Shown here: in pieces, positions 5,836 to 50,972 of the stretch
Layout: each line of letters starts with the position of its first letter
Position numbering within the stretch: position 1 is the stretch's first letter
IMG/VR virus record: IMGVR_UViG_3300033141_003735
Source of the DNA: a virus
Direction: 5' to 3' (one strand)
DNA length: 50,972 nucleotides
Notes under the pieces: generated by a model
Database searches by the model: none
What the model was told of the DNA's origin: nothing
Seen by the model: only the letters and a program-made list of their open reading frames with translations
Made by a program: the position numbers and the translations under genes

Positions 5836-5844
5836 GATTTTCTC

Positions 5845-6201: not shown

Positions 6202-6309
6202 CTATAAAAATAGGGACAAATAATAATAAATGCAAATATTTTTTAAAGGAAGGTTTGTTTTTAGGAAGGGTTTATATGGGGGAATTTTAAATATTTATTT
6301 TTTTTATTA

Positions 6310-12115: not shown

Positions 12116-12254
12116 TCCTCCTGGTAAACTTAACCACGTCTGAAATGTTATGGATAATAATTTTTCCTGATTTTTCTTCCATAAGAAGAATTATTTTTCC
12201 CTTGTATTTAAGGGCAAAAAAATTTTCAATTCTAATTATCGTGAATTTTCTCAT
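12105..12254 (-). CDS. Small hypothetical protein (49 aa)
   Basis: My translation: MRKFTIIRIENFFALKYKGKIILLMEEKSGKIIIHNISDVVKFTRRIDE. ATGA overlap with the HNH stop. Confidence 0.3.
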   Translation of the reverse strand: MRKFTIIRIENFFALKYKGKIILLMEEKSGKIIIHNISDVVKFTRRIDE

Positions 12255-33657: not shown

Positions 33658-34179
33658 TTAGGCATTTTTCCCTACGGTTCCAAATTTCCCAACTTGACCT
33701 GAGACTTGAGATACGAAAACCCAGAATTCAACATTGAACACCTTTTGGGTCGACCTATCATAGGCTAGTTCAAAAGCTCTCCTGTAAGAACAGTGATAAA
33801 GAATTATCCATTGAGATGAAGTTTCATCCGGTGTTCCTTCTAACCTGCGTTTTATGGCAATCTCTTTTGCGTCCTCCCTCATTGCTTGACCTGCTAGATT
33901 CGGAATATCAATCTCGTCTCCATCAACCGTACCCCCCAGCACTACTGCTAATTGTTCTAGAGTAGATCGCGCCATAGGAACTGTAAGAAGTATTTTCATC
34001 CCTCCTCTAACAGCATCTACAGGGGCATCACCAAAGTCTTCTTCTTCCACGGGATTAATAGTTTCGTCGCCCGATAAACTAACTGTTCCATAGTGTGGGC
34101 TCAAGGAAATTTCATTAACTCCCCCATGATCCCATACTATCTCTGCCGCACTAATGTCTCCCATTGGTAATTGTGGCAT
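33658..34179 (-). CDS. Major tail (tube) protein
   Basis: 173 aa, strong GGAGG Shine-Dalgarno site, immediately upstream of the chaperone pair. No sheath gene is present, which implies a non-contractile tail. Confidence 0.6.
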   Translation of the reverse strand: MPQLPMGDISAAEIVWDHGGVNEISLSPHYGTVSLSGDETINPVEEEDFGDAPVDAVRGGMKILLTVPMARSTLEQLAVVLGGTVDGDEIDIPNLAGQAMREDAKEIAIKRRLEGTPDETSSQWIILYHCSYRRAFELAYDRSTQKVFNVEFWVFVSQVSGQVGKFGTVGKNA

Positions 34180-34295: not shown

Positions 34296-34733
34296 TTATT
34301 CCTGCATGATTTTAAAAGTATAATTGGTCGAAAAAACATACAGTCCGTCATCGCCTGGATTAGCGATAGGCGTTGGTTTTGCGTCTGCCTGGACTACCAG
34401 CACAGTATATATGCCTTCTCCTAAATCTGGAAGATTGAACCATCCTGATACTTGGTCTAAAAAATGCAAAAAATTATACACCTCTAAAGCATCGCCTCGA
34501 GCTGTAAAATACGTTTTAGCTCGATTCCATATTTGTATAGGCTTGTCTATTCTATCTTTTAGGTACATATCAGTAGCCGGACTAGCGTTTTCCAGAACAG
34601 CCATAATCCTAGGCGGAGGCTTGACATCATTTATATTCCTTGCAGGGATATGACCCGCAAAGAAATTATCATCCCTTACCCAGGGCGGCCCCAGCCCTTC
34701 ATCAAGTATAAGAGTAGCTATTTCCTTAAGCAT
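34296..34733 (-). CDS. Tail terminator / tail completion-like protein
   Basis: 145 aa; call rests on position between the gp10-like gene and the major tail protein. Confidence 0.4.
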   Translation of the reverse strand: MLKEIATLILDEGLGPPWVRDDNFFAGHIPARNINDVKPPPRIMAVLENASPATDMYLKDRIDKPIQIWNRAKTYFTARGDALEVYNFLHFLDQVSGWFNLPDLGEGIYTVLVVQADAKPTPIANPGDDGLYVFSTNYTFKIMQE

Positions 34734-34734
34734 A

Positions 34735-35115
34735 TCATCCTCTTAACTCATCAGCCAGCATAGCTATATATTTATCCCTATTTTTTGTAATTTTACTCTC
34801 CAGAAATTTAGGCCCTGAACCCGGAAGGGTAAATTCATTGCTTGATGGCATCTCATGGACAAACGCTGCATATTCTGTGTTAAAACCTACTTCTAAAGTT
34901 AATTTATCCAGCCACTCGTTCACTACTTTACTTCTCCAAAGCAGCCCTGTTTTATGCGGAGCGTAAGGCTCCTCTTCTATAGCGTCAGCCATGATTTTGA
35001 TTCCTACTCTCCCCAAGGCTTTATGACCTTTTGAGGGGATTTGGCGTTTAGTGATATCGTCAAAATCCTTAATGAAATCTGAATAATCCACCTGGAACTT
35101 GCATTCGTTTTTCAT
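34735..35115 (-). CDS. HK97 gp10-family tail component
   Basis: ALGRVGIKIMADAIEEEPYAPHKTGLLWRS...EYAAFVHE matches the gp10-family pattern (P..tG.L..S ... YA..vE). Confidence 0.55.
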   Translation of the reverse strand: MKNECKFQVDYSDFIKDFDDITKRQIPSKGHKALGRVGIKIMADAIEEEPYAPHKTGLLWRSKVVNEWLDKLTLEVGFNTEYAAFVHEMPSSNEFTLPGSGPKFLESKITKNRDKYIAMLADELRG

Positions 35116-35414
35116 CTGATATCTACCTCTTGGTGATGTTCATTTTTCATGTCTTTAGGCTTAGCGATTTTTAGATGGTCGTAACTGTCCCCTGGTATCC
35201 TTATCTTTGTCGTCTGTTTTATAATCTGTTTAGGACTAAAAAATATAAGAGCAAAGCTTACCACTTGCTCACCCTCGGCATTTCTTACCAGCCGATTTCC
35301 GTATTCTATTCGGCAAGATACGTTTTTTTCTACACTCACCGAGGCTTCCCCCCAAGCACCTGGGGTTTCAAGCACCAAATCTACGTTATCCGGAAACAAA
35401 TGCGATATGTTCAT
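35112..35414 (-). CDS. Head-tail adaptor / head closure-like protein
   Basis: 100 aa; call rests on synteny. Confidence 0.4.
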   Translation of the reverse strand: MNISHLFPDNVDLVLETPGAWGEASVSVEKNVSCRIEYGNRLVRNAEGEQVVSFALIFFSPKQIIKQTTKIRIPGDSYDHLKIAKPKDMKNEHHQEVDIR

Positions 35415-35454
35415 AAGTCCTCCATAAAAATATTAAGTCCATTTGCTCGAAATG

Positions 35455-35757
35455 TCAAAATTTTAGCCCTCCTATCATCTCCATTTTATGCTTCAAATCG
35501 TAAACCATATCCTGTATTTCAGAACTAAATTCTTTCATTGAAGAGTATTTTTCTTTTTTAGTAGCATTTATTTTTGTGTTCAAAACTTCATCTGTTACTT
35601 CAACATCTTGAATTCCAAAATATTTAATGATTGAATCCAAGTGATCTTTATCTCTGACCATTTCCTTAAATGAAATGACCTTATACTCTTTCTTCATCGA
35701 ATAATAGAGAAGCTTGATTATACTTTTCTCAAGGTCTTCAAAGAATCCTAAACTCAT
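35455..35757 (-). CDS. Truncated sulfotransferase-like paralog (C-terminal half only)
   Basis: Starts at GFFEDLE, the same motif as residues around 40 of the neighbouring sulfotransferase. It has VISFKEMVRDKDHLDSIIKYFGI but no PAPS-binding loop. Confidence 0.4.
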   Translation of the reverse strand: MSLGFFEDLEKSIIKLLYYSMKKEYKVISFKEMVRDKDHLDSIIKYFGIQDVEVTDEVLNTKINATKKEKYSSMKEFSSEIQDMVYDLKHKMEMIGGLKF

Positions 35758-36407
35758 GATGACCTCCTATAATGCCAGAGATTAACATCTATAAAATGCA
35801 TCAAAGGATTCAGATTATTAGGTATATTCAAACCCAAAAACCCAGTTAAGGCCTTTAGCTCAGTAATCCAGTCAGGACTAAAGTAATCATGGAAAAAGGT
35901 TTGTACCCATTTTGTCTTATCCAAATTCTCATATAGAGTTTTGACGTATAACCAGGAAAGATTTAAGCCATCTGCTATTTTAATTCCATTTCGCTTCTCT
36001 AAGCTTTGTGCTATTTCCTCAAAAGGTCTTGAGACTATAACAACCTTTATCTCTTCAGGAGAGACTACTTTTTTCCATACAGGCAAAGTAAAACAAGTGC
36101 GAGGATCTTTCCATCCAACAATTTTATCTTCTGGCCATTTGTCAATAAATTGTTTCATCTGGGTTATAAGCTTATCTGGCAAAACCTTTATTTCCTTTGG
36201 AGGCTTGTGTCCTCCGCCTCCACCATTACTGTTTAATCGGAATATTTCTTTATTTATTGCAAGAAATTCTAAGTCCTCAAAAAACCCTCTAGGGTTGTCC
36301 TTTCTGGGTGGCTTTAGGTTATTTCCTAAATAGAGGCCACACTTTTGAAGTAATCCCGTTACCATCGATGTTCCTGATCTGTGCATCCCTGCTATAAATA
36401 CTTTCAT
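35754..36407 (-). CDS. Sulfotransferase
   Basis: The 5'-PSB-like loop IAGMHRSGTSMV, the 3'-PB-like VVIVSRPFEEIAQSL, and the C-terminal FLGL motif. Confidence 0.6.
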   Translation of the reverse strand: MKVFIAGMHRSGTSMVTGLLQKCGLYLGNNLKPPRKDNPRGFFEDLEFLAINKEIFRLNSNGGGGGHKPPKEIKVLPDKLITQMKQFIDKWPEDKIVGWKDPRTCFTLPVWKKVVSPEEIKVVIVSRPFEEIAQSLEKRNGIKIADGLNLSWLYVKTLYENLDKTKWVQTFFHDYFSPDWITELKALTGFLGLNIPNNLNPLMHFIDVNLWHYRRSS

Positions 36408-37252
36408 TTTTGATTTACCAATTCCAAAAATTGGTTCGCAATCATTTTACTGTTATTGTTCTCAGCAATAAGATTCCTATTGAGCACTCCTTGATTTTGG
36501 TTATACTTTTCTGTTTCTTTGAGGAATACATCAATAGACTTAACCTCTATATGCTTATGCCGACCACTTAAATTATTTTGTCTGAACTTGAAAAATGTTT
36601 CGTCATCGACAAAACCATCCATAAGTTCCGATTTAGATCTCCCGCTGTTATTGCCACTTACGATAACGTTCTTCCCCATCGCCATTGCTTCATAAGCTCC
36701 CCTGCCTCTTGCCACTACTAAATCAGCTTCCTCTAAATACCGCCATACATATACAACAGGTGGGTTGCCTATTTCGATGACCCTAAAACCTCTTTCTACT
36801 AATCCACTTTTAAACTTAAACTTTCTGCGTCTATCGAAAAAAGCAATGGTTTTTAATTCCTCGCTACATCCTGAAAACGGGAACTCATCTAGATCAATGG
36901 GGTTTCTTATTACCCGATCAACAGGAAAACCCTGAGCCTTGCAGTTATCAGCAACCTCCTCTGAAACAGCCACATAAATATCAGCTCCTTTTACAGGCTG
37001 TTCCAATTGAGGCAGTATCCCGTGAGATATAAAAATTTTTACTCCCTTAAACCTTCTTGTGTCATGAAGGGCGACATTAGAATTACATAAAATCAAGTCA
37101 AAATCACTATCACTAGGATTATATCCAGGACAATGAGTTAAGAAGTGAACATCATGCCCCATCTTTCTTAAAGCAAAATACATACCTTTAGCCCAAGTCT
37201 GAACTCCACCAAAGAAATTCTCAAGTTCATAGAGTGCAATTAGTATCTTCAT
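36404..37252 (-). CDS. Glycosyltransferase, GT-B fold (GT1/GT4-like)
   Basis: MKILIALYELENFFGGVQTWAKGMYFALRKMGHDVHFLTH is a typical GT4 N-terminus. Confidence 0.55.
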   Translation of the reverse strand: MKILIALYELENFFGGVQTWAKGMYFALRKMGHDVHFLTHCPGYNPSDSDFDLILCNSNVALHDTRRFKGVKIFISHGILPQLEQPVKGADIYVAVSEEVADNCKAQGFPVDRVIRNPIDLDEFPFSGCSEELKTIAFFDRRRKFKFKSGLVERGFRVIEIGNPPVVYVWRYLEEADLVVARGRGAYEAMAMGKNVIVSGNNSGRSKSELMDGFVDDETFFKFRQNNLSGRHKHIEVKSIDVFLKETEKYNQNQGVLNRNLIAENNNSKMIANQFLELVNQK

Positions 37253-37992
37253 ACTCTTCTCTCAGCCCTTTTCTTGAGGTATAAATCTAGATTCCTTTTT
37301 CTCGTTTTTTGGTCTAAAACCTTTCCTCTTGTGGCCTCATGCTCATGCCAGACGAAACAATCTAAGGCTATGATTGTCTTGAACCCAGCCAATCTTGCCC
37401 TATCGTTATAATCATCATCCTCGCCTCCATTCAGGAATTCCTCATCCAAGAGGCCGATTGTGTTTATTACCACTCTGCTTACTGCCGTACAGAAATAAGA
37501 GATATTTGAATTTATTGAAATCCTCTCGGGTTCCAAACTGCTAAAATATTTATCAGGCTCTTTGGGAATTGGCCGCCTCAAATATCTCATAAGCCTTCCG
37601 TATTGCTGATTAGAACCGCATTTATTTGTTACGGCTCCGATGATTCCGATTTTTTCGTTGACTCCAAAACCGTGTATCAACCTTCTCAACCATCCTTTGG
37701 TAACTACAACATCATTATTCAAAAATATGATCGGGTCTGACTCCGATATTTTAATCCCAATATTTATGGCTTTGGCAAATCCTTTGTTTTCTTCCGTTCG
37801 ATATGCCACATGGTCAATTCCCCATTCTTTTAATTCGCTTGAAACCTTTTGGTATTCGGGCGTCATCGATCCATCATCTATCCAGATTATCCGATAGGGA
37901 ACGACGGTATTCTTTTCAATGCTTCTCAGACATCGAATCGTGTAATCCGAATTGTTATAAGTCGGGATTATGATATCTATTAAATTAGGCAT
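37249..37992 (-). CDS. Glycosyltransferase family 2
   Basis: IDIIIPTYNNSDYTIRCLRSIEKNT...IIWIDDGS...GEDDD. Confidence 0.7.
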   Translation of the reverse strand: MPNLIDIIIPTYNNSDYTIRCLRSIEKNTVVPYRIIWIDDGSMTPEYQKVSSELKEWGIDHVAYRTEENKGFAKAINIGIKISESDPIIFLNNDVVVTKGWLRRLIHGFGVNEKIGIIGAVTNKCGSNQQYGRLMRYLRRPIPKEPDKYFSSLEPERISINSNISYFCTAVSRVVINTIGLLDEEFLNGGEDDDYNDRARLAGFKTIIALDCFVWHEHEATRGKVLDQKTRKRNLDLYLKKRAERRV

Positions 37993-38560
37993 GTTCCTTC
38001 TCTCCCTTACCTCGCCCCTGTTTCTTCTGTGTCTTAGCAACTACACGATCGAGCCAGAGGTGGTTTTTTGTCTTCTTATAGCATGCAGAAATAAAACTAA
38101 AATCCCCTCCCACTCCAGCCTGGGTAGGCTTTCCAAACTCATGAATATTAGCCATCCATACGTCTCTTCTTACCGCAAAGCAAAAGGATGCGATAAGAGC
38201 AAATTTAGGAGCCTTACCCCAAATATTTGGTTTTGGATAAATCCAATGTTCATTTATTATGCCTTTAAAAAAAACAATTTCAGGCTCAATCAATTCTGTT
38301 TCTTTCTTAATTGTCTTAACGAAATCTCGATCTATTAACATATCATCATCGTCAAGAACCATGACATATCGTGCTTCTATATGCTTAATTTTTTCCATTG
38401 CCAGATTAGCCCTCGGGACCCCATAACCTACTTCAGTCTTATCATCCCAATGGAGGATGTGGATATAATCATCACATGTTTGTTCTTTCACGGATTCTCT
38501 GCAGACTCTTAACATGTTTGGCCTTCTAGGGTGCACGCGAGTTATAAAAGCTATACCCAC
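37985..38560 (-). CDS. GT-A fold glycosyltransferase-like protein
   Basis: IAFITRVHPRRPNML...VMVLDDDDMLID contains a DxD motif. Confidence 0.5.
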   Translation of the reverse strand: MGIAFITRVHPRRPNMLRVCRESVKEQTCDDYIHILHWDDKTEVGYGVPRANLAMEKIKHIEARYVMVLDDDDMLIDRDFVKTIKKETELIEPEIVFFKGIINEHWIYPKPNIWGKAPKFALIASFCFAVRRDVWMANIHEFGKPTQAGVGGDFSFISACYKKTKNHLWLDRVVAKTQKKQGRGKGEKEHA

Positions 38561-39264
38561 CTCCGTTCTATTTCTGGTTGATGTCGTCTTTTTCTCTCGT
38601 TCCTAGTTCCTCTTGTATCATGTCTTATATATTCTTTAGGTTTTCCTTTCCAACCGAAGCCCTTGCCTGCTGTATGTCCTAATCCAGGGAACTCTTTTAA
38701 AATTTTATCCGATAGACCTCTCTTGTAAATATCACGCATTGTCAAATAGCAAGGAGCTCCATGATGCACATAAGGATGGTACTTTTTATAGTTCTGGATG
38801 TTTATCAGCTGAAAATAAGGGTGAAGATACGGCATTGATTCTTGTCCCTTGTGTTGAGGTTTCACCCCATAGTCATAGCCATCCAATGCAGTTCTTTGTA
38901 TAAAGCCAACGCCAAAAGTATCCTCTTCCATCATTTCAAGCATTCGACTGACAGGAGATTTTAACATCTCTATATCTGAATCGAATATCAAAGCATATTT
39001 CGTCTTGGCTTTTTTGATTCCCAAATCCATGCCTCTCCCATGACCGATATTATAGCCGAGTGAGATAACGGTCGTTTTACTGGAAGCAAGGGTCTTGACA
39101 TAAGAGGCACATGGATCCCCTGGGTCAGAACCGTCAATAATAATAATCGGCATGTCCGGATGGAATTTTCTTACGGAAGTGTAAGCCCGTTCTATTAGCC
39201 TCTTTGTATTATGGCAAACTGTAATTCCTGTTACATCAACCAAAGTAGTCCCCACAATTTTCAT
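38551..39264 (-). CDS. GT-A fold glycosyltransferase-like protein
   Basis: ITVCHNTKRLIERAYTSVRKFHPDMPIIIIDGSD...LIFDSDIEM. Confidence 0.5.
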   Translation of the reverse strand: MKIVGTTLVDVTGITVCHNTKRLIERAYTSVRKFHPDMPIIIIDGSDPGDPCASYVKTLASSKTTVISLGYNIGHGRGMDLGIKKAKTKYALIFDSDIEMLKSPVSRMLEMMEEDTFGVGFIQRTALDGYDYGVKPQHKGQESMPYLHPYFQLINIQNYKKYHPYVHHGAPCYLTMRDIYKRGLSDKILKEFPGLGHTAGKGFGWKGKPKEYIRHDTRGTRNERKRRHQPEIERRWV

Positions 39265-39961
39265 TTGTTAATTTACCTTCGATTATATCCATATAAATAC
39301 GATAGTCCTCGGGCACCCATTTCTTTAGCTTTAATCGAGACGTGTCAGGAGGGTATTTTTTATACAGTGACAAGTCATGACCTCTCCCAATACCCCTGCG
39401 CCCAGGCAACCCTTTTATTCCTAAGTATAATGGATTTTTATCAGAGTCAGTAAAGATAAATCCATTAGCCGCTCTCCACAAAAGAGTATCAATATATACA
39501 TTACCCTGACTTAGTAATCCCTTAAATTTTGGTAAAAAAGAACGCCTGAATCCTGTCTCAGCAAGCGAGGCGTGTCTCATATTCCCAATCGTAAAATTAC
39601 CACCAGACGGCAGATGGTAATATTTGCTGTTTCCAATGCCAACGACTTCGTGCCTTGAAAGATGTTTGGACATAACCTGAATATAATAGGGGCTATAATA
39701 CTCATCGTCCTCCATTATCAGAATCTTATCCCCTTTGATATGAGGTAAGGCACATTTAAGATTTTCTATAAGAGTAAATTGAGGGTCGCTTTTTTTTGGT
39801 TCTCTCCGAATATAATCAAAGCTTTTAGTTTTTGTTAAAGGTTTTATTCCATCATCGACAACGACCCATTGGTCTGCTTTTAGAACTTGATGTTTCATCC
39901 ATCGCCTGCATAAGGCAAATGCTAATGGTCTATCACCCGTAGGTGTAACTGCTGTTATCAT
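39236..39961 (-). CDS. GT-A fold glycosyltransferase-like protein
   Basis: ITAVTPTGDRPLAF...WVVVDDG...ILIMEDDEYY. Confidence 0.5.
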   Translation of the reverse strand: MITAVTPTGDRPLAFALCRRWMKHQVLKADQWVVVDDGIKPLTKTKSFDYIRREPKKSDPQFTLIENLKCALPHIKGDKILIMEDDEYYSPYYIQVMSKHLSRHEVVGIGNSKYYHLPSGGNFTIGNMRHASLAETGFRRSFLPKFKGLLSQGNVYIDTLLWRAANGFIFTDSDKNPLYLGIKGLPGRRGIGRGHDLSLYKKYPPDTSRLKLKKWVPEDYRIYMDIIEGKLTNENCGDYFG

Positions 39962-40721
39962 ATTCTAAATATTTCCTTTGCTGTTTTAATGGAATATGCC
40001 TTAAGGGCTGTCTGATCAGGACTCCGGACTACTACATTTATGACCTCGATTCCTAGCTTTTCGAGCTGAGGCTTAGCTTTCCCAAAACTTGCCCTGAAAT
40101 TAACAAGGACTTTAGCCGGCTGTTTTTTAGGATGCCCGCTATGAAAATGCCTTTTCCCGTCCGATTCTTTCAAATCAAACCCCAAAAGATAAATAGGATT
40201 GGCACCCAAGCATACAGCAATATTCATAGCCCCATAACCTGAATTATTCCCATGACCTATGCCTAGCTTTAGACTGGGGGATATAGCGTAATAAGCCTTT
40301 GAATAATTCTTATAATCTTTAACTATATAGACGTATGAGGGAAACGTCCGACCTGGAGTCCAGCGCCAGACCTTTAAAGCCTTACTGTTAAGGAATTTCT
40401 CTTTGGCCTGCTTCCCATAACTCTCCTCTATTACAGTCCACTTGAAAAACCTCTTATCCATTGAGTAGATGATATCAGGGTCATGCCATTCGTAAACACT
40501 CCAATGGTAAGCCTGCCATTAAGAAGATTCCAATCGAACTCCTCAAGACTTGGGCCTCCACCTATCACAACACAAGGATTTCCTTTCCAGCTTCCATCGG
40601 GTAATACTTCCCAAAGAAATTTGTTTTGAGGCTTATCGCTTTCCCTTTGAGATCTCATTCTCATGGCTTCCTGAGTAGCAAAAAACATCAGCCTAAGGGG
40701 ACAAAATGTCGAATCCGTCAT
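39958..40721 (-). pseudogene. DUF115 / Maf-like (MptE-like) glycosyltransferase gene split by a -1 frame break near 40491..40499
   Basis: N-terminal ORF has PCVVIGGGPSLEEFDWNLLNGRLTIGV. The -1 frame continues YEWHDPDIIYSMDKRFFKW...GHGNNSGYGAMNIAVCLGANPIYLLGFDL. Confidence 0.55.
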
Positions 40722-41331
40722 CTATATAGTGTTTGAGGATTATATCAGCTTCCATGACTCCTGAAAGCACGGGGATGGTCTCCTCTGTATCTCCTCTATC
40801 ATATGAGTATTTTCCAATTTTTTCGGATTTAAAGAGAGTCTTAGTGTAGGTGCCAGGATCATTTTCTTCTTCTATAAGAATTTTGCATGCTTTTTTTATG
40901 GGCTCTGGAACAGTTTGACCGTACTTCCCTGTAATACAGATATTATTCAGGCCTCGTGGGAAGAGATTATCGCCTAAAGAAGTCGTGGTTAGAATATAGG
41001 TAAGCTCTGGATCCCCCACTCCAGCCCCTGATACGCCACAATCCAGGTAGATCGAATGCTCATCATAAGTATAAAAATCCTCGGGCAGAGTGACCCCGCA
41101 AATCTTAACACTTGAGATGCTCAGGATACTCTCAGTTATGGGGGGGTGAATGCGATTTTTACCATTACCGTCCATACACAGGTCAAGGTCTTTTTCGTAG
41201 AAATGGGTATTAGTGACCTTTTCTATAATCTGTTCTTTCTCGGCTATTATAGCTTTCTTTTCTTCCTCAGTAGTCCCAGATGGCCAATCAATTTCTTCAG
41301 GTGTTATATAGTTTCCCATTTTGATTATCAT
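40693..41331 (-). CDS. Head-tail connector (gp6-like) protein
   Basis: YITPEEI...THFYEKDLDLCMDGNGKNRIHPPITESILSISSVKICGVTL resembles connector/adaptor family proteins; sits after the capsid genes. Confidence 0.45.
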   Translation of the reverse strand: MIIKMGNYITPEEIDWPSGTTEEEKKAIIAEKEQIIEKVTNTHFYEKDLDLCMDGNGKNRIHPPITESILSISSVKICGVTLPEDFYTYDEHSIYLDCGVSGAGVGDPELTYILTTTSLGDNLFPRGLNNICITGKYGQTVPEPIKKACKILIEEENDPGTYTKTLFKSEKIGKYSYDRGDTEETIPVLSGVMEADIILKHYIDDGFDILSP

Positions 41332-41395: not shown

Positions 41396-42178
41396 CTATT
41401 CGATAACTCTTTTTTGTGATATCTTAACGTAATCAACGCTTAGGGTTTTAGCCTTAGCCTCTCCAGCTCGGATACCGAATCCGAGCGTAAGTTCTTCGTC
41501 TTGGACTATGTAAGTCGTCACCGTGCCTGTTGCTAGAATCGTCTGTGGAAAGTCTCCGTCTTCTATTACAAACCAGCGGATATTGCCCTTGCCATCCCAG
41601 TGTATACCCAGCCTATACCAGGTATCATCGACCAAGTCTTGTGTCGTGTCCGTATCATTCCCGGCACCATTAAGAGCATTTGCAAAGTCAAGATTGTTAT
41701 CCCCATCATCCTTTTTGAACACAACATAATCATTAGGCGGCCCCGCAAAGTATCCGGCTGTTCCGGTTATTAAGCCAAACCAGAAATCGGTTTCCTTTGC
41801 ATCAGAGAGCTTGAATCTTAGTTCAGCATAAAGCGGATAGTTATCTACCAGCTTCCAGCATTCGCATTGCTGCACCAATTCACCGCTGTCATCATCATCG
41901 CCCTCAGTCACGATCTGCAAAATACCGTTTACCTTATCTGCACAAGCAAGGGTTTCAACACCAGAATCACTTGGCGACTGAATCAGATCCCAGCTGTAAG
42001 TTACATCAGGAAGGCTGCAGAAATCTTCAGCAAACCTATGTGCGTCTATGACATCAATGACGTCCTTAAGAAAAACCATCTTATCATGCTGGATGTGAAG
42101 GTTATGGGTGAGGAAATCACGCCATAACAACTCAGGCTGATGGGCATCATCGTTATCTAATACTTTAGGATATTCCAT
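41396..42178 (-). CDS. Capsid-associated protein with concanavalin-A/LamG-like jelly-roll features (decoration candidate)
   Basis: 260 aa downstream of the major capsid gene; segments PLYAELRFKLSD...FWFGL...DTWYRLGIHWDGKGNIRWFV. Confidence 0.4.
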   Translation of the reverse strand: MEYPKVLDNDDAHQPELLWRDFLTHNLHIQHDKMVFLKDVIDVIDAHRFAEDFCSLPDVTYSWDLIQSPSDSGVETLACADKVNGILQIVTEGDDDDSGELVQQCECWKLVDNYPLYAELRFKLSDAKETDFWFGLITGTAGYFAGPPNDYVVFKKDDGDNNLDFANALNGAGNDTDTTQDLVDDTWYRLGIHWDGKGNIRWFVIEDGDFPQTILATGTVTTYIVQDEELTLGFGIRAGEAKAKTLSVDYVKISQKRVIE

Positions 42179-44451: not shown

Positions 44452-44481
44452 TTGACATAGCCTAGTGATATGTAATATAAT
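44452..44481 (+). promoter_or_regulatory. Sigma-70-type promoter (TTGACA-18-TATAAT) for the plus-strand cassette
   Basis: TTGACA at 44452..44457 and TATAAT at 44476..44481. Confidence 0.6.
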
Positions 44482-44500: not shown

Positions 44501-44644
44501 ATGAAAAAAATTATTTTTAATTTCCGTATTGAGGTAGATGTATTAAACAAATTAAAAAAGCTAGGCAAGGAAAAAGACAGAAGCATAGGTTATTTAATAA
44601 GGAAAGCTGTTCATGAATACCTCAAAGAGAATAGAAAAGTATAA
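44501..44644 (+). CDS. Ribbon-helix-helix (CopG/Arc-like) small protein
   Basis: My translation: MKKIIFNFRIEVDVLNKLKKLGKEKDRSIGYLIRKAVHEYLKENRKV. Confidence 0.55.
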   Translation: MKKIIFNFRIEVDVLNKLKKLGKEKDRSIGYLIRKAVHEYLKENRKV

Positions 44645-45640
44645 AAATAGAGACTGGTTATATAAGAAGTATGTCATAGAAAAACTTTCTGCATGTGAGA
44701 TTCAAAGGATCTGTTCAGTCGGAAACGGTACAATAGAAAGGTGGCTGAGAAAGTTTGGCATTGAAATCAGAAGTTACAGCGAAGCAATTAAGCTAATAAG
44801 GAAAAATAAATATTGGCATAGTGGTAATTTATCAAAACAAAAGATACAAAAGTACAGGAATAAGAATTGGCTATACCAGAAATATTGGGTAGAAGGCTTA
44901 GACTCGGTGCAGATGGCCAAAATTGTGGGAACCCAATCTAATGTAATTATGAGCTGGATTAGGGCTTTTAATATAAAAGTAAAGCCCAAAGGTGAAAACC
45001 AAAGAGGGCGAAAACATTATATCAGAAGAGTCTAAGCTCTTGATTTCTATAAAAGCCAAGAAAAGATGGCAAAGTAAATCATACCGAAAGAAGATGTCAC
45101 TTGTATTAAAAGGTCTTCAAGCAGGAAAAAATAATCCTAATTACGGGGGAGTTTATTCGAGGAAGAGATCGGTTAAAGAAAAAATTAGCAAAGCAAATAA
45201 AGGAAGAAAGATTAGTGAAGAAGAAATGGCTAGGCGTATTCAGTCATGGAAAACAAGGCCTTCTAAATTAGAGAAGATGTTTGATGATATTACTCCTCCT
45301 GAAATTAGATATACAGGAGATGGAGCCTGGTGGAGAAAACTAGATGAATGGGCATTATCATAATCCAGATTTTAAAGTCACTGGCCAGAATAAAGTAATA
45401 GAAATTTGGGGTTCGCATTGGCATAAAAACGATGATGGGTATTATCTGATTAATTTATATAGAAGAGCTGGGTTAGATTGCTTAATCATAAAAGAGTCTG
45501 AATTCTATCCTTTGACTAATTCTCCCTCTAAAAGGATTTTAAATAAAAATAGAAGGCTTAAAATACAAAGGAAGGTAAGGGCGTTTGTGAATGATAGCCC
45601 TAGCCAGTTGTTGCTGTCCCCCCCATTGAAAATCCGTTGA
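44613..45640 (+). pseudogene. Free-standing homing endonuclease gene (HTH repeats, NUMOD3-like, Vsr/DUF559-like PD-(D/E)XK) broken into three frames
   Basis: There are two copies of the HTH module: WLYKKY..IQRICSV..GTIERWLRKFGIEIRSYSEA and WLYQKY..MAKIVGT... NUMOD3-like motifs GKNNPNYGG and ISKANKGRKISEE follow. The nuclease core is PSKLEKMF...YTGDG / HYHNPDFKV..KVIEIWGSHWH. Frame changes occur near 44990..45005 and 45340..45350. Confidence 0.6.
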
Positions 45641-48335
45641 ATTTGCCTTCAATTATATCATTCCAGATTTCTTTCTCGTCTCCCAAATAGACGGAGATAT
45701 ACCAATCACCAGATTTGACCAGGTGGTTGTCCCCAGTGCCTCCCTTGTGATGGTCTTCTTCGGCCTGGTAGCATTCAATGATTTTAGCTTTAATAGGTTT
45801 TCCCTCGTGCATCAGCTTGATTTTTCCGCCCTTTATCATAAACTTTTTTAACGCCTTCCATATCTCTGAAGCAGAAGCCGCATCTCCCTGGGTATCTACG
45901 TCGTTTGCTGAGTACACAATACCACCTACGATATACTCTTTTTTGTTCACCTTAAGGAATCTAAAATAAGGAGAATCATCTTTTTTTATTATTCTTTCCA
46001 GGGCTTTTTTTATTTTCTCAGCTAGGCTACTCCACCACTCTTCCCAGTTTTTCTCCCCATAGGACGTTTTGCCAGCCACTACGATTCTAGGTCTGTTCTC
46101 AGTCCCTATATCTGAGATAGAAAACAACCCTTCTGATTTATCGATTTCCTCGCTTACTTTTTCAGCAAGAGAATCTAGGTTCTGGTCTCTCATGCGAAAC
46201 ACCACAAAGGCTACACGGTCTTTATCTTTACCCTCATCTGTGCTTCTTATCTCTACATGTGCTAAAGAATTTAAGCCCTCAAGCCAGGCATCTTTAATGT
46301 GTTTATCCACCATCAGGCCTTTCCAATTTTTTTTAGGTGAATCAGTTCGACCGCTTAAGGGCTTGGAAGGAACGACACCATAAACAGCTTTATATGCAAG
46401 CGTTGGGGAGTTTATACGTTCTTGCTTATCAACCTCTTTTTTATGGTCATCGTCGTCTAGTTTTCTCATCATCCAAATGCGCTTACCTTCCTCTGTTGGC
46501 ACATACGCCATAAGCCAGTTGCCGTCAAAGTGCCGGCTATTGGTAACGTGGAACTTCTTGGCATGCTCGTCAGCCTGGTAAAGAGACCAATTAAACTTAT
46601 CGATTCTTAACATAGCCGCATACATGTTTGCAGTTGCACCAACTTCCCCAGGCTCAAATATCTCTAGTTTGTTAACACCTGCTTTAAACCAACTCATAGG
46701 GCCTCGAATTATATCGATTTTAGTTTCGCCTTTTCTGGGAACCTTCCACCCAAATCTCAAGCTCTGACCTTTTTTGTACCCATAAATTTTATTCAGCCCT
46801 GAGAGGTTGCCTATCATAATCTCTCCACCCTCCCAATATTTATCTTTCTTTCTATGGAACCGTATATCTATATGGGCGCCCTGCTCTCCGATTTTATTCT
46901 TTAAGAGCTTCTCAAGATTCCTAAGGTCACCTCTGGCTACTATAGCTCGGTCTTTAATGTCCAGAAGGCTCTCGAGTTCTTTTTCCTCTATGCCCATTAT
47001 ATGAAGCTGAGCTACAGCATCACCTGAGTCGCCTTCTTCAAAATCTATGTTTCCCTCTACACTAGCCGCACCCTCTTCGTCCTTTACCTTTTTGAATTTG
47101 ACATTACGGATTACAGTCTGGACTCCCTGGGGGTACTCGTACTCTTTGGGCAGTTTGTACTTATCTACCCAGTCGAATTCGTAAGACCAAAGACTTTTCT
47201 CTTTATCGAAGCCCCAGTCCTTAGCCTCCTTATCAGTTATCTTATGTTTTTCTTTAAGGTCTTGGAATTCTTTTTGAGTAATCTTTATGGGCTTGTGGAA
47301 TTTAACCTCTCCATAGCACAAATCTCCACTGCATAGGAAAACAGTTTTCTCAACATACTCATCTGGGAGCTTCTTAATCTTAATAACTAGGTTCTTATCC
47401 CCATCAAACATGTACTTGCCATGAGGTTCCTGAAGATATATTCCCCGTCCGGAACCAATTGCTTTCTGTAGGATATTAGCCTTCTCTGCGATTTGTACAA
47501 CCTGGTTAGCATAATAAGGCTCTTTCCTCGCCTCGTCTTTATCAATCACCCTTGGGCCTAGCCAATCCAGTTTATTCTCGCTTGGGATAATCTCCTCAAT
47601 GCCTATAGTCAAAATATCCCCTGGGCTAGCATTTATCTTTGTGTTAAATGTCTTGCCTAGGTTCACTAGCTCCATATCACCAACACGGGTTATGTTTTGG
47701 TAGGGGCTATCTCCTTTCAATACCCCGCAGGTGTAGTTGTAATTGCCTCCTTTTACACTGTGCTTCTCTATGACCATTACTTTTATCTCAGCCTCTATTT
47801 TAAGCTTAGCCCAGCCTTCTATGCTTCCATCTACATCCCATATGCTTTCGATATCCTTGACCACAATCCCTTCAGACTGGGGATATTTAGCAAACTTTTT
47901 AAACGCTTTTTCTAGCTCGCTTTTATTGTTTACGACCTGGGTCTCTGTTATTTTAAAATTTTTAGATGACTTAAGATATTTATTATAGAACTCCTCAAGT
48001 TTTTTTCTTCTTTCACTAAAAGGCAATAGGTGTAGGTCTTTTTTCCAGAAAGGCAAATCGAAAACGGTACAGACTATTATTTCTCCTTCCGTAAGCTCTG
48101 GTTTATCAGCCATTAAAGTCATAAGCTTAATTCGAGGCAAAGGCTTCCCGTTCTTTTCTATACCCACTCCCCCGTCAAGAATGTAATCATCAGGTATCTT
48201 AGCTAAAACCTCCGTCAATGAAGCAAACTCTTTTGTTCTATCCTTACCACCTTCAGTCTTTATGCGGAATCTATCTCCTAATTTTTCAGCTATGCATCTA
48301 AAAGAATTAAGCTTTGGCTCAGCCACAAGTCCCAT
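45600..48335 (-). CDS. Multidomain head-module protein: ATP-dependent ligase-like NTase plus OB domains (N-terminally truncated), central domains (possible ASCH-like and LigD phosphoesterase-like), and a C-terminal XkdF-type prohead protease
   Basis: Ligase motifs are I KLNSFR (variant), III ILDGGV (variant), IIIa FDLPFW...PFSERRKKLEEF, IV SEGIVVKD and V GWAKLK. The C-terminus YIVGGIVYSANDVDTQGDAASASEIWKALKKFM...SGDWYISVYLGDEKEIWNDIIEGKFNGFSMGGTA matches XkdF. Confidence 0.6.
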   Translation of the reverse strand: MGLVAEPKLNSFRCIAEKLGDRFRIKTEGGKDRTKEFASLTEVLAKIPDDYILDGGVGIEKNGKPLPRIKLMTLMADKPELTEGEIIVCTVFDLPFWKKDLHLLPFSERRKKLEEFYNKYLKSSKNFKITETQVVNNKSELEKAFKKFAKYPQSEGIVVKDIESIWDVDGSIEGWAKLKIEAEIKVMVIEKHSVKGGNYNYTCGVLKGDSPYQNITRVGDMELVNLGKTFNTKINASPGDILTIGIEEIIPSENKLDWLGPRVIDKDEARKEPYYANQVVQIAEKANILQKAIGSGRGIYLQEPHGKYMFDGDKNLVIKIKKLPDEYVEKTVFLCSGDLCYGEVKFHKPIKITQKEFQDLKEKHKITDKEAKDWGFDKEKSLWSYEFDWVDKYKLPKEYEYPQGVQTVIRNVKFKKVKDEEGAASVEGNIDFEEGDSGDAVAQLHIMGIEEKELESLLDIKDRAIVARGDLRNLEKLLKNKIGEQGAHIDIRFHRKKDKYWEGGEIMIGNLSGLNKIYGYKKGQSLRFGWKVPRKGETKIDIIRGPMSWFKAGVNKLEIFEPGEVGATANMYAAMLRIDKFNWSLYQADEHAKKFHVTNSRHFDGNWLMAYVPTEEGKRIWMMRKLDDDDHKKEVDKQERINSPTLAYKAVYGVVPSKPLSGRTDSPKKNWKGLMVDKHIKDAWLEGLNSLAHVEIRSTDEGKDKDRVAFVVFRMRDQNLDSLAEKVSEEIDKSEGLFSISDIGTENRPRIVVAGKTSYGEKNWEEWWSSLAEKIKKALERIIKKDDSPYFRFLKVNKKEYIVGGIVYSANDVDTQGDAASASEIWKALKKFMIKGGKIKLMHEGKPIKAKIIECYQAEEDHHKGGTGDNHLVKSGDWYISVYLGDEKEIWNDIIEGKFNGFSMGGTATTG

Positions 48336-48885
48336 CGTCTTTTACCTCTAATTTTCCTAATAATAATTGATTTTCATATTCTAAAATTGAAATCCTTTCC
48401 TCTAATTCTTTAATCTTTTTCTTCATTGTGTTTATTTGGACATGATTGGCTTGGTTAGGTAATAACTCAAGATTTTCTATTCTATTATCATCTTTAATTC
48501 CATTTTTATGATGAACTACTTCCCAGGTTTCGAGACACCTTCCTAAATACTTTGCCATAACCAAACGATGTTCTCTGATATAACCATGATGATCAGCCAT
48601 TGGATAGAAAGGACTTTCTTCTTTTAGATTAATATATATATAACCTTCTTTTGTTTTAAGCTTCCCGCCTTTCCACCTTGGGTGGTCTTCTCGTTTATAG
48701 CCTATATTATTAAAAAGTTTTCTGCTACACTTAGCACAATGACCAGTATAATTAGGTCGATTCATTTTATTTAATTGAACCCATCGTTTCGAACCACAAT
48801 TTGGGCATATTACTAATCCATATTTATTCGAACCCTTTTTTCCTATTTCAAAGGGTCTCTTAACGTCTATAATTTCATTGTTCAT
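48319..48885 (-). CDS. HNH homing endonuclease inserted within the ligase-like coding region
   Basis: HHGYIREHRLVMAKYLGRCLETWEVVHHKNGIKDDNRIENLELLPNQANH is the HNH motif, with an N-terminal CPNC...CAKC zinc finger. The ORF starts 1 nt after the upstream stop and overlaps the downstream ATG by 17 nt. Confidence 0.8.
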   Translation of the reverse strand: MNNEIIDVKRPFEIGKKGSNKYGLVICPNCGSKRWVQLNKMNRPNYTGHCAKCSRKLFNNIGYKREDHPRWKGGKLKTKEGYIYINLKEESPFYPMADHHGYIREHRLVMAKYLGRCLETWEVVHHKNGIKDDNRIENLELLPNQANHVQINTMKKKIKELEERISILEYENQLLLGKLEVKDDGTCG

Positions 48886-48886
48886 T

Positions 48887-50089
48887 TCAAATCCTTTCTT
48901 TAGCCCAGTCCCATATCTGCTCTACTGTAAACGCCTCCGTATGAGTTAGAAAGCCGCTCATAGCAGGCTTAGGTGGAACAAACTCCCCAAACGGGGTAAG
49001 CTCTTTTTCCTTTTTAACCTTTGTCATCACGGCCAATGCTGTGTTTGAGGATTTTATAAGCTGAGACGACCAGCCCTTGCTTAGAATCTTTTTAAATTCA
49101 GTTAGGTTCTTGTACTCATGTTTATGGGTGGGGTCTTGTCTTTCGCCCAGAGGTACTATGACTATAGCTTTTTTCCTAGCCACTCTCTCCATTTCTTTAG
49201 CCAAAGACTTTGGATTGGTTACGTGTTCCAGCACATGGACTGCTGTCACGTTGTCAAATGAGTTATCTTCAAAAGGGATTCCTTTGTCTAAGTCATGCTC
49301 TTTGATATCGAGCTTCTTACCCCTTGCCATTTTAATAGCAGTTCTATCTACATCCACTCCCAGGACGTCCCTTCCATCTCCTTCCAGGAGCTTAAGAAGT
49401 TTTCCCGAACCGCAGCCTATGTCCAGAACCGAGCCTTTGCTTAGATTCTCAAGCACATGAGCATTGTCACAAAGAAGGCCTACATCCCAACTCTCTAATC
49501 CCTCATAATAATCCGCTGCTCTTTTAAGTTTAGCCTGTACGCTTTCCTTAACGTAAACTCTCTTAAGATTAGGTTTGACCCGAGCTACTAAATCAAAGAC
49601 AGGAATATAAGTGCTGTGAGGCCCACGAGGTGCATATACAAAATGCAAGTCTTTCTTTATTTGCCTCTTCAAGACCCTGCCTATTTTAAGCTCAAGGCCT
49701 TCGTCTCTATTTCTTGCATACTCCCGGATTATGATATCTAGGTCATTAGCTTCTCTCGGTCTCTTGACAAACGACCCCCCAATAGAAATATAGTCGTTTA
49801 CTATTACCTGGTCTCCTATGCTTTTAATATCAATTCCCGTCATGGCTTTTCTGAACGCCTCAATGTCCAAATCAGTTGTAGTGTGATGAGTGAGATTCCT
49901 CTTGTTCATCTCTCTTATGAGGATTTGATACTTGTCTATAAATTCAAAGCGGTCTAGTCCGCCGACCTCCCCACCTTCTCGGCCCTTGAGGTTCTTGTTA
50001 TAGAGCTGTATAAATCTAAGGCGCATGTTATATAGTTCTTTATCATTCTCCTTTTTGATTGATTTTGCTGTAATATTCTCTATTTCCAT
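48887..50089 (-). CDS. Pol-beta-type nucleotidyltransferase plus class I SAM methyltransferase protein, ending in the N-terminal segment of the ligase-like domain (start revised to MEIEN at 50089)
   Basis: ISIGGSFVKRPREANDLDIIIRE fits the GS-x10-DxD NTase motif. VLDIGCGSGKLLKLLEGDGRDVLGVDVD...VHVLEHV is the SAM MTase. The C-terminus is FVPPKPAMSGFLTHTEAFTVEQIWDWAKERI. Confidence 0.55.
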   Translation of the reverse strand: MEIENITAKSIKKENDKELYNMRLRFIQLYNKNLKGREGGEVGGLDRFEFIDKYQILIREMNKRNLTHHTTTDLDIEAFRKAMTGIDIKSIGDQVIVNDYISIGGSFVKRPREANDLDIIIREYARNRDEGLELKIGRVLKRQIKKDLHFVYAPRGPHSTYIPVFDLVARVKPNLKRVYVKESVQAKLKRAADYYEGLESWDVGLLCDNAHVLENLSKGSVLDIGCGSGKLLKLLEGDGRDVLGVDVDRTAIKMARGKKLDIKEHDLDKGIPFEDNSFDNVTAVHVLEHVTNPKSLAKEMERVARKKAIVIVPLGERQDPTHKHEYKNLTEFKKILSKGWSSQLIKSSNTALAVMTKVKKEKELTPFGEFVPPKPAMSGFLTHTEAFTVEQIWDWAKERI

Positions 50090-50090
50090 T

Positions 50091-50972
50091 TTACACCACC
50101 GCTGTGAACGTACATTCGCAGTTATGACTTGCAATATTATTAGCAATGTACCAATGGTTTTTGGTTTGCAAATTATATACATATCCGGTATAATATTCAG
50201 TATGGACACTAATGACTTTATCGAACTTTATAGGAAAGGGTTGTCCATTTATAAAATTGCTAATATCTATGGAGTTAGCCCCTCTTGGGTCTATTTCGTA
50301 GTTAAAAGAGCTGGGGTTAATAGGACACGCTCCGAGGCTTTGCGTCTCCAACCTAGGGAAAGATTTGTTGCCATGTCTAAAAAAGCAGTAATTGCTCGTC
50401 AAGGACGCGGACGGGAAATTACTTTTGCCGAACGGTTGCGTAGAGCCAAAACCCGTGAACTTAGACAATCCGCCACCGGCCCCACTGAAAAATTGGTTGT
50501 CATTGCTCTTAGCAAAAAAGGAATTCATGGTGTAGCCCAAAAGGCTATTGGTCCCTATAATTGCGACTTGGCCGTCGGGACTAACATCGCCGTGGAAATC
50601 CTCAGCACTTATTTTCGTTTTTACGGTAAGCGTAGACTTAGAGAGGAAAAACGACTCCGCAATTTGCTCAATTGGGGCTGGAATATAATTTATATTCTTC
50701 TTAATCCGCGAAATCCAGTTATAACCAACGTCCAAAGAGATAACGTAGTCTCCAAGATTCAAGAAATTAATAGGCACCCAACCGAAATTACTCAATACTG
50801 GATGATTGGGAGTAGCGGTCAGATTCTTGCCAGTGGTGGTTTTAATGATGATAACATCTCCCTCGTACCACCTTTTCGTAACTCCAGAGATCCTGCCACA
50901 GGGAGATACAAGAGAGTCCCCAGGTAGACAGTTCGGATGAACTGGAATTACCCCCTGTGCCTCATCAATCGT
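50091..50972 (-). CDS. Mu F/SPP1 gp7-like head morphogenesis protein, 3' portion: end of N-extein, 270-aa intein and 9-aa C-extein (CECTFTAVV)
   Basis: Continuous minus-strand frame ...TIDEAQGVIPVHPN|CLPGDSLV...NIASHN|CECTFTAVV*. Joins 1..906 through the terminal repeat. Confidence 0.8.
   Translation of the reverse strand, partial: TIDEAQGVIPVHPNCLPGDSLVSPCGRISGVTKRWYEGDVIIIKTTTGKNLTATPNHPVLSNFGWVPINFLNLGDYVISLDVGYNWISRIKKNINYIPAPIEQIAESFFLSKSTLTVKTKISAEDFHGDVSPDGQVAIIGTNSLLGYTMNSFFAKSNDNQFFSGAGGGLSKFTGFGSTQPFGKSNFPSASLTSNYCFFRHGNKSFPRLETQSLGACPINPSSFNYEIDPRGANSIDISNFINGQPFPIKFDKVISVHTEYYTGYVYNLQTKNHWYIANNIASHNCECTFTAVV
50166..50194 (+). promoter_or_regulatory. Sigma-70-type promoter (TTGCAA-17-TATAAT) antisense to intein block F, 7 nt upstream of the plus-strand ATG
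   Basis: TTGCAA at 50166..50171 and TATAAT at 50189..50194. ATG at 50202 with no Shine-Dalgarno site, implying a leaderless mRNA. Confidence 0.55.
50202..50927 (+). CDS. HTH plus Vsr/DUF559-like PD-(D/E)XK homing endonuclease encoded antisense, entirely within the intein
   Basis: The HTH is MDTNDFIELYRKGLSIYKIANIYGVSPSWVYFVVKRAGVNRTRSEA. The nuclease core is TGPTEKLVVIALSKKGIHGVAQKAIGPYNCDLAVGTNIAVEILSTYFRFYGKRRLREEKRLRNLLNWGWNIIYI. It shares the module family of 44613..45640. Confidence 0.65.
   Translation: MDTNDFIELYRKGLSIYKIANIYGVSPSWVYFVVKRAGVNRTRSEALRLQPRERFVAMSKKAVIARQGRGREITFAERLRRAKTRELRQSATGPTEKLVVIALSKKGIHGVAQKAIGPYNCDLAVGTNIAVEILSTYFRFYGKRRLREEKRLRNLLNWGWNIIYILLNPRNPVITNVQRDNVVSKIQEINRHPTEITQYWMIGSSGQILASGGFNDDNISLVPPFRNSRDPATGRYKRVPR

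Follow-up and report, generated by a model that had tools for sequence, protein, structure and literature searches.

The window analysed here is the full 50,972-nt stretch of IMG/VR record IMGVR_UViG_3300033141_003735, a virus genome in which a cluster of predicted glycosyltransferase and sulfotransferase genes, hereafter the island, sits among the genes for virion structure. Contigs used for comparison are given L-numbers (L001, L013 and so on). The open reading frame (ORF) listing places nine tightly packed ORFs, representing eight genes, at 35455-40721 on the minus strand, between the gene for a head-tail adaptor and that for a head-closure protein. Island gene junctions overlap by 4-56 nt, and the sole gap, of 40 nt, lies before the head-closure gene. 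A preliminary description of this DNA had proposed an island of eight co-oriented, mostly overlapping genes between the head-tail connector and head-closure genes. This was borne out, with every ORF found on the minus strand where it had been placed, and the profile matches of the flanking genes confirm its position inside the late structural operon. From upstream to downstream, the island and its two boundary genes are as follows.

40693..41331, minus strand: head-tail adaptor, the upstream island boundary (phrog_442, 1.7e-9).
39958..40721, minus strand: DUF115/MptE-like protein with a sialyltransferase-like fold, the first island gene, split into ORFs 40431-40721 and 39958-40461, with an alternative start at 40688.
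39236..39961, minus strand: GT2a, a GT-A-like enzyme with an EDDE motif (PF00535 at 9e-5, 22.9 bits against a cut-off of 23.3).
38551..39264, minus strand: GT2b, a family-2 glycosyltransferase with a DSD motif (PF00535 at 2.9e-15, 57.1 bits against a cut-off of 23.3).
37985..38560, minus strand: 191-aa GT-A-like enzyme with a GTG start and a DDDD motif (no Pfam match; phrog_14775 at 8e-4).
37249..37992, minus strand: GT2c, a family-2 glycosyltransferase of 247 aa from ATG 37992 (PF00535 at 5.5e-26, 91.9 bits; PF13641 at 2e-12).
36404..37252, minus strand: short GT-B-like protein of GT4 type, 282 aa (PF13439, Glyco_transf_4, at 3.9e-8, 34 bits against a cut-off of 28.5).
35754..36407, minus strand: sulfotransferase dependent on 3'-phosphoadenosine-5'-phosphosulfate (PAPS), 217 aa (PF13469 at only 14 bits against a cut-off of 27; supported by homologs, profile, model and motifs).
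35455..35757, minus strand: truncated second sulfotransferase-like gene, 100 aa, a C-terminal half with the lowest GC content of the island (0.29).
35112..35414, minus strand: head-closure/connector protein, the downstream island boundary (phrog_3881, 5e-7).

Fold, motif and PHROG evidence place the first gene in the DUF115 family. With the family profile PF01973, scores stay below the cut-off of 34.6 bits for the two fragments of the window (13.8 and 18.6) and for the unbroken L002 ortholog (30.5). The cut-off is passed in relatives with fused proteins (41.3 bits in L088 and 40.0 bits in L066), and most of the 120 homologs listed carry a precomputed PF01973 match. The window gene also matches phrog_4603, labelled 'alpha-2,3-sialyltransferase', at 5e-17. 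An AlphaFold2 model of an ortholog reaches a predicted local distance difference test (pLDDT) score of 93.1, and Foldseek aligns it with a Pasteurella sialyltransferase (9c08) and with archaeal MptE (8sd5) at a probability of 1.0 and template modelling (TM) scores of 0.44-0.49. Phage DUF115 proteins in BFVD match the same model with TM scores of up to 0.82. The GGGPSL...N motif aligns to that of the Campylobacter sialyltransferase Cst-II, to which the sequence match itself is weak (E 0.08). Searches of the PDB with the single sequence of the DUF115 ortholog or of the sulfotransferase returned noise alone, and profiles were required. In the relatives, the DUF115 gene is always a single ORF of 229-260 aa that encodes the core only. 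Maf proteins, in contrast, have ~600 aa, with substrate-binding domains flanking the DUF115 core on both sides. Therefore, the label of DUF115/Maf-like enzyme given in the preliminary description holds for DUF115, on the fold, the motifs and the PHROG match, but 'Maf-like' overstates the likeness of a minimal 240-aa domain that has no Maf flanking domains and is here split into two ORFs.

Alignment of the window with L013, a contig from another sample, traces the split to a 7-nt deletion (CAATCGA, window position 40498) that shifts the frame. L013 carries an intact 245-aa DUF115 gene, and the deletion is the only difference between the two copies. Over three aligned blocks that total 16.4 kb, L013 and the window are 99.75-100% identical, with one mismatch. 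The deletion takes out the invariant Asn of the GVNRVY motif (N62 of alignment A1). The nucleotide-binding GGGPSL loop is kept in ORF 40431-40721, whereas the conserved Asn that follows it is lost here; both are intact in L013. Since the first enzyme is frameshifted in this genome copy, the copy may make no glycan or an altered one. Programmed frameshifting was considered for this gene and rejected, because the lesion is a 7-nt deletion relative to an otherwise identical sequence and there is no slippery site.

Downstream of the DUF115 gene, four GT-A/GT2-like enzymes and one GT-B enzyme had been proposed. Two of the four, GT2b and GT2c, are firm. GT2a is borderline by Pfam, and the 191-aa ORF is placed by one match, that of its profile to TarP. 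Acidic DxD-type motifs can be read from the translations of all four, and in GT2c they take the form of NND together with EDDD. The GT2a family comprises 1668 representatives at 50% clustering. Among its long members, 44 of 48 carry PF00535, and other long members carry DUF115, TOD1/MUCI70 or methyltransferase domains. GT2b finds only sub-threshold matches in NCBIfam, to TuaG and PgaC, and has orthologs in L002, L019, L022, L047, L059 and L090. In the 191-aa family, the DDD motif is invariant in 34 homologs, and a 34-sequence profile matches the GT-A enzyme TarP (6h1j) at 7.9e-5. Shallow profiles of the GT2a and 191-aa families gave weak hints of a GT-A fold against the PDB (SpsA at 0.087, vaccinia H3 at 0.53). 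When the 191-aa and GT2a families were compared with GT2c profile against profile, the probabilities of 0.7% and 4.3% were uninformative because the alignments are too shallow. The longest ORF for GT2c begins at 38040, and ATG 37992 was taken as its start after the gene call in L013; among the island genes searched, its only ortholog is in L063. In the 282-aa protein, taken as GT-B-like, the N-terminal Glyco_transf_4 domain scores above its cut-off, but the C-terminal Glycos_transf_1 domain is weak (E 0.06) and the protein is short. Its ortholog in L090 is 63% identical.

The proposal of a sulfotransferase with PAPS-binding loops is upheld for the 217-aa protein by the Pfam matches of its homologs, its profile match, its model and its invariant motifs. 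Many of the homologs carry PF13469 or PF00685, and a 50-sequence profile matches the protein-tyrosine sulfotransferases TPST1/2 at 6e-12 to 1e-8. The RSGTS and KDP motifs and the R127...S135 pair are invariant, with R10-S14, R127 and S135 present in 50 homologs. These motifs align to the PAPS-binding and catalytic motifs of TPST, namely the 5'-phosphosulfate-binding loop (RSGTT in TPST1/2, RSGTS here), KDP, and the R-x7-S of the 3'-phosphate-binding motif, at an overall identity of only ~17%. The model has a pLDDT of 93.7 and a TM score of 0.60 to TPST2, and its top Foldseek matches are TPST2, Stf1 and the CurM sulfotransferase (CurM ST). PF13469 also includes small-molecule and sugar sulfotransferases, and Stf1 and CurM ST were likewise matched. 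Because the nearest solved relatives are protein-tyrosine sulfotransferases, a sulfated glycan is only one of two options for this enzyme. Orthologs of the 217-aa protein occur in nine of the 24 complete islands.

The adjacent 100-aa ORF had been described as a truncated sulfotransferase paralog. It is indeed truncated, but it is no close paralog of the 217-aa enzyme (BLAST E 0.3) and belongs to a different family. It is 61% identical to residues 101-196 of a 198-aa protein of L002 from another sulfotransferase-like family, which is full length, with a GRSGTKF loop and a PF13469 match at 0.014. Neither PAPS-binding motif is present in the 100-aa ORF. The truncated gene is found in L013 as well. 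The two sulfotransferase genes share the peptide GFFEDLE, but recent recombination at this point was considered and rejected, as the DNA differs at many positions there.

To place the island among relatives, IMG/VR was searched with the capsid and adaptor proteins, which gave 12 loci at first, and with an adaptor profile, which gave 58. The loci were mapped with hidden Markov models (HMMs), and a head-closure-family HMM marks the island end in 33 loci. The DUF115 gene begins directly after the adaptor in 55 of the 64 loci with sequence downstream of the adaptor (~47 of 56 when duplicate contigs are left out). Island size, taken as the distance from adaptor to head-closure gene, ranges from 4.1 to 8.9 kb, and the 24 distinct complete islands contain 49 gene families. 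By HMM matches, DUF115 is present in every island and relatives of GT2a in most. BLAST clustering splits the latter into a window-type family (window/L013, L002, L047, L059, L090) and a more distant GT-A-like family of 214-254 aa (13 islands). The variable content includes cupin, GT1-like and GT9 proteins, methyltransferases dependent on S-adenosylmethionine (SAM), a sugar C-methyltransferase, an enzyme dependent on pyridoxal phosphate (PLP) and several sulfotransferase families. In L090, a single 956-aa ORF joins DUF115, GT2a, GT2b and the 191-aa enzyme, the first four genes of the window, in the same order, with the 191-aa enzyme as its C-terminal domain. Other fusions join GT2a to GT2b (L047) and DUF115 to GT9 (L066), and L075 has a 779-aa GT9-containing protein at the position of the L066 fusion. 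On gene content, a conserved core with hypervariable additions, 49 families in 24 islands, is the pattern of loci that determine glycan structure.

The preliminary description had also asked whether relatives lack the island at otherwise conserved flanks. All close relatives keep it, and in L081, L092 and L094, the most distant relatives with both flanks, the adaptor gene directly abuts the head-closure gene, as predicted. The adjacency of these two genes in three distant relatives implies that the island was inserted and then retained. In L024, the head genes are different, and a DUF115-led island still lies just upstream of the head-closure gene. The GC content of the island (0.387) equals the genome average (0.389), arguing that it is no recent import. 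Promoter-like and terminator-like sites in the island show no excess over shuffled sequence. No transmembrane-length hydrophobic stretch (19-aa window, threshold 1.6) was found in any of the nine island ORFs of the window, and very few island ORFs of the relatives have one. Neither an integrase nor a repressor was found among the window ORFs scanned.

Between the capsid and adaptor genes, next to the island, lies a further protein of the head module.

41396..42178, minus strand: 260-aa protein, candidate decoration protein or acceptor (PF22237, SO2946-like_C, weak at 2e-4).

All loci with a DUF115 gene encode this protein, whereas the seven loci that lack an island do not, and it has no PDB or PHROG match. 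Its identity across relatives is mosaic, at 52% in L001, where the capsid is 92% identical, and 82% in L002, where the capsid is 79% identical. This suggests that the gene is exchanged horizontally, as would be expected of an exposed protein.

We read the island as a late-expressed cytoplasmic glycan-assembly module that decorates a virion protein. This reading, although unproven, is the best supported, and we judge its chances to be about even. The lack of transmembrane stretches, of an integrase or repressor and of a promoter excess, the genome-like GC content and the fixed site among head-completion genes all point to a late-expressed cytoplasmic assembly line that acts on a target produced concurrently, most simply a virion protein. 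Also in favour are the conservation of the site across the lineage, the fusions that link the enzymes, the hypervariable content around a conserved core, the co-occurrence of the 260-aa protein and the precedent of mycobacteriophage virion glycosylation. The preliminary description had suggested a possibly sulfated glycan on virion proteins, which these results support in part. In comparison, Maf enzymes glycosylate a self-assembling structural protein in the cytoplasm. According to this reading, the island would be transcribed and translated together with the low-copy connector genes, as its gene packing suggests. The DUF115, GT2a, GT2b and 191-aa enzymes, fused in some relatives, would form a core that probably starts the glycan from a host-supplied cytidine monophosphate (CMP)- or nucleoside diphosphate-sugar. 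The variable downstream enzymes (other glycosyltransferases, methyltransferases, cupin and PLP enzymes, and sulfotransferases) would then elaborate it, and the turnover of these genes may yield a different structure in each sublineage. The oligosaccharide would be built during head and neck assembly, and in many relatives it may also be sulfated or methylated. It would sit on an exposed virion protein, for which the 260-aa protein beside the capsid gene is the best candidate.

Several points weigh against this interpretation. Virion modification is here a prediction from gene content, and the island enzymes are assigned only to classes. The absence of membrane segments does not exclude targets in the host envelope, because soluble GT2 and GT4 enzymes also act on membrane lipid-linked acceptors. 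The island of the window holds no genes for nucleotide-sugar synthesis, CMP-sugars included. In addition, 17 structural proteins, capsid and tube included, showed no Ser/Thr-rich windows and no C-terminal acceptor tails of the kind seen in glycosylated mycobacteriophages; the richest stretch of 20 aa, with nine Ser or Thr residues, belongs to a putative fibre protein. The co-occurrence of the 260-aa protein with the island is confounded by phylogeny, since all island-less loci belong to the most distant relatives. Finally, this island copy may be inactive, because its first enzyme is broken and a second gene is a stump.

The last point leads to the explanation that the island in this genome is a decaying, non-functional remnant, whatever its role in relatives. 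Relative to L013 and L014, the first enzyme is frameshifted by the 7-nt deletion and a further 15 nt are missing at window position 38555, which removes the ATG of the 191-aa gene that both contigs retain; the last gene is a stump of very low GC content that L013 shares. The 191-aa ORF nevertheless keeps a GTG start, and the remaining six genes are undamaged and match their counterparts in L013, where the DUF115 gene is whole, at 100% identity. The indel-only pattern would also fit assembly artefacts or a minority variant, and we think it rather improbable that the island here is a remnant. A different alternative is that the enzymes modify envelope glycans of the host (lipopolysaccharide, capsule, exopolysaccharide or glycoprotein precursors) late in infection, using host lipid carriers and export, perhaps to hide receptors and so keep progeny from being caught on debris, or to shut out rival phages. 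Enzymes of the GT2 and GT4 types and PF13469 sulfotransferases are characteristic of loci for polysaccharides of the cell surface, and the PHROG families matched by the GT2 proteins bear the names of O-antigen conversion or moron genes. Furthermore, among solved structures the 191-aa enzyme is closest to TarP, a prophage-encoded wall-teichoic-acid glycosyltransferase, and one distant relative, within a 189-kb Aminicenantes contig, may itself be a prophage. However, no membrane protein, be it a flippase, a polymerase or GtrA/B/C-like, is encoded in the island of the window, and the marks of Gtr-type or O-antigen morons (a membrane flippase or transferase, expression from a prophage, a promoter of their own) are missing, as is a terminator of its own. 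A site fixed between two head-completion genes across very divergent phages is also hard to explain for host-directed cargo. With no membrane proteins, no integrase or repressor in the ORFs scanned and no additional promoters or terminators, a target within the infected cell is favoured over lysogenic surface conversion of the classical kind, and we regard modification of the host envelope as unlikely, though with a real chance of being right.

Glycosyltransferases of phages are best known for glucosylating DNA, as summarised in PMC12619734, so the island enzymes might instead hypermodify the phage DNA, as glycosylated hydroxymethylated bases, against restriction. No hydroxymethylase or other base-modifying gene was found among the ORFs scanned, and the island lies in the virion module, outside the DNA-metabolism module. 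In addition, we know of no DNA-modification pathway that includes a sulfotransferase or a DUF115 protein. This role is highly improbable.

Decoration of a virion protein by the island would have parallels in several known systems. To our knowledge, glycosylation of phage particles was first demonstrated in 2023, and so far only in actinobacteriophages (mycobacteriophages). Reportedly, the virion glycans of these phages shield the particles from antibodies. Mycobacteriophage glycosyltransferases modify the capsid as well as the tail tube (Freeman et al. 2023, through citations in PMC11600133 and PMC11256854). According to the summaries in these two papers, examples are Che8 of cluster F1 and the cluster O phages Idergollasper, FoulBall and Schuy, and in cluster O three tandem glycosyltransferase genes lie downstream of an O-methyltransferase gene (PMC11600133, PMC11256854). 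The island shares with these accounts tandem phage-encoded glycosyltransferases, sometimes with a methyltransferase. Unlike in them, the enzyme families differ, and DUF115 and sulfotransferases go unmentioned in these summaries of the mycobacteriophage work. The adaptor/head-closure site is fixed here, whereas the F1 genes are summarised as lying near the 3' end of the genome. In the lineage of the window, the island is hypervariable and far exceeds these gene sets in size, Ser/Thr acceptor tails at the C-terminus are not seen, the phages are uncultured and are no actinophages, and virion modification is a prediction.

A parallel in position is offered by Pseudomonas phage D3 (L099, NC_002484.2) and D3-like phages, in which the gene for a DUF115 homolog of 198 aa lies between those for the major head protein and the adaptor Ad1. 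This gene, D3 orf7 ('alpha-2;3-sialyltransferase'), resembles the island DUF115 gene in its minimal domain, its motifs (ASGPSL, NSGGG, LLGYD and HWHGDHP) and its place in an HK97-like siphophage head module, and D3 also has a methyltransferase gene between the head-closure gene and a gp10-like gene. On the other hand, orf7 is 26% identical to the island protein, stands alone without glycosyltransferases or a sulfotransferase, and lies upstream rather than downstream of the adaptor. The annotated start of orf7 (5951) removes the ASGPSL motif; the 198-aa ORF at 5813-6409, from GTG 5813, holds the whole DUF115 core and overlaps the annotated orf6.5. No reported function for the D3 homolog was found in the literature.

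Among enzymes outside phages, Cst-II (GT42) shares the aligned GxGPSL...N motif with the island DUF115 protein, but the sequence match is weak and the island has no CMP-sugar synthesis genes. The flagellin glycosyltransferases of the Maf type belong to the same PF01973 superfamily, with N- and C-terminal domains that the island protein lacks. The layout, with glycosyltransferases and modifying enzymes that turn over quickly behind a core that is conserved, recalls O-antigen and capsule clusters as well as flagellin glycosylation islands. Unlike O-antigen and capsule clusters, the island has no initiating phosphoglycosyl transferase, flippase or polymerase, and it sits in a phage structural operon. 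In full-text literature searches, no account turned up of an island in such an operon that is led by DUF115 or contains a sulfotransferase.

If the island does decorate a virion protein, it would be a new form of a recently discovered system, larger, cassette-like, fixed in the head-completion operon and equipped for sulfation. A second, unrelated lineage would show sugar-coated virions to be a general phage strategy. The glycan would add a layer of diversity to the particle surface, with a bearing on host recognition, particle stability, adsorption in the environment and phage therapy. The presence of a DUF115 gene in the head module of D3, a cultured phage, makes the idea directly testable. 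More speculatively, the island might act as a virion serotype locus. In that case, widespread uncultured siphophages, possibly infecting Acidobacteriota, would keep an O-antigen-like, fast-diversifying cluster that coats the particle, and the TPST-like enzymes, including an extra copy in the head module of some relatives, would sulfate either the glycan or tyrosines of virion proteins. We hold this extended version to be a long shot. If true, these would be the first sulfated phage particles, with a surface that evolves by exchange of gene cassettes and not by mutation of the capsid.

The presence of other modifying domains in head modules also speaks for the proposed decoration of virions. 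The extra 217-aa sulfotransferase-like gene lies at 5082-5735 of L015, and also occurs in L064 and L065, in the head module between the protease gene and a scaffold-like gene, outside the island. A 440-aa head-module protein (48887-50209, minus strand) is conserved across the lineage in its residues 41-220, which in L015 form part of the protease protein. At its C-terminus, the 440-aa protein has a SAM methyltransferase domain (PF08241, 8e-20) that not all relatives share and that could be a further virion- or glycan-modifying activity.

The window, L013 and L014 represent three assemblies of the same phage from different samples, whose differences are almost all indels of 6-67 nt, at window positions 40498, 38555, 35174, 30429 and 26226. 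Between the window and L013, 0-1 substitutions were counted over 11.8 kb. Besides the deletions described above, the window lacks 6 nt in the head-closure gene and 54 nt in the tape measure gene, and in L014, 35 nt are gone from the head-closure gene and 32 nt from the neck gene. Several of the indels among the three assemblies break or trim genes. They may be real variants, produced by slippage, or assembly artefacts.

A terminal direct repeat of 111 nt (1-111 and 50862-50972) indicates that the window is a complete genome of ~50.9 kb. In minus-strand order, the genes for terminase and portal (4060 to 1178) run on across the genome junction into the head genes. A head protein gene of 558 aa (ORF 906 wrapping to 50091, minus strand) spans this junction and is missed by a linear ORF listing; the plus-strand ORF 50025-50927 was rejected as spurious, since the 558-aa minus-strand ORF crosses the junction there. 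A nucleotide search of GenBank phages with the 11-kb region gave no match. Downstream of the head-closure gene, the operon continues as follows.

34735-35115, minus strand: tail completion (phrog_5).
34296-34733, minus strand: match to a tail terminator family.
33658-34179, minus strand: tube-like.

A tape-measure-like gene of 1276 aa comes after the connector, tail-completion, tail-terminator and tube genes. The region has a single intergenic gap, immediately upstream of the head-closure gene, and there a promoter-like site (35430-35458, minus strand; TTGACA, 17-nt spacer, TAATAT) matches 10 of 12 consensus positions, a consensus match alone.

As to the host, the nearest relatives, with capsids 92% identical, were binned in a metagenome-assembled genome (MAG) of Acidobacteriota, and the distant relative noted above lies in an Aminicenantes contig. 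Matches in MAG bins, most of them on short contigs, are spread among Acidobacteriota, archaea, Deltaproteobacteria, Omnitrophota and other groups, and host assignment from these bins is unreliable. Genes for homing-type endonucleases (HNH, endonuclease VII-like and GIY-YIG) are numerous (48319-48885, 12251-12955, 5074-5622 and 17015-17548). A sigma-factor-like protein is encoded at 6310-6879, and a protein with a Cas4-like exonuclease domain at 13460-15271. On gene content, several homing endonucleases together with a sigma-like factor suggest a lytic phage. The only plus-strand block of the genome (44386-45640), at which the GC skew changes sign, lies between the protease and scaffold-like genes. 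With a perfect sigma-70 consensus (12 of 12, 44452-44481) and, after it, a gene for an HNH endonuclease (44613-45035), the block resembles a homing-endonuclease cassette. In a 911-aa ORF (45600-48335, minus strand), the N-terminal part is an ATP-dependent DNA ligase adenylation domain (PF01068, 9.6e-18) and the C-terminal part an XkdF-type prohead protease domain (PF14550, 1.8e-16). Such a ligase-protease fusion is odd for a head module, and in L003 the match splits into two pieces.

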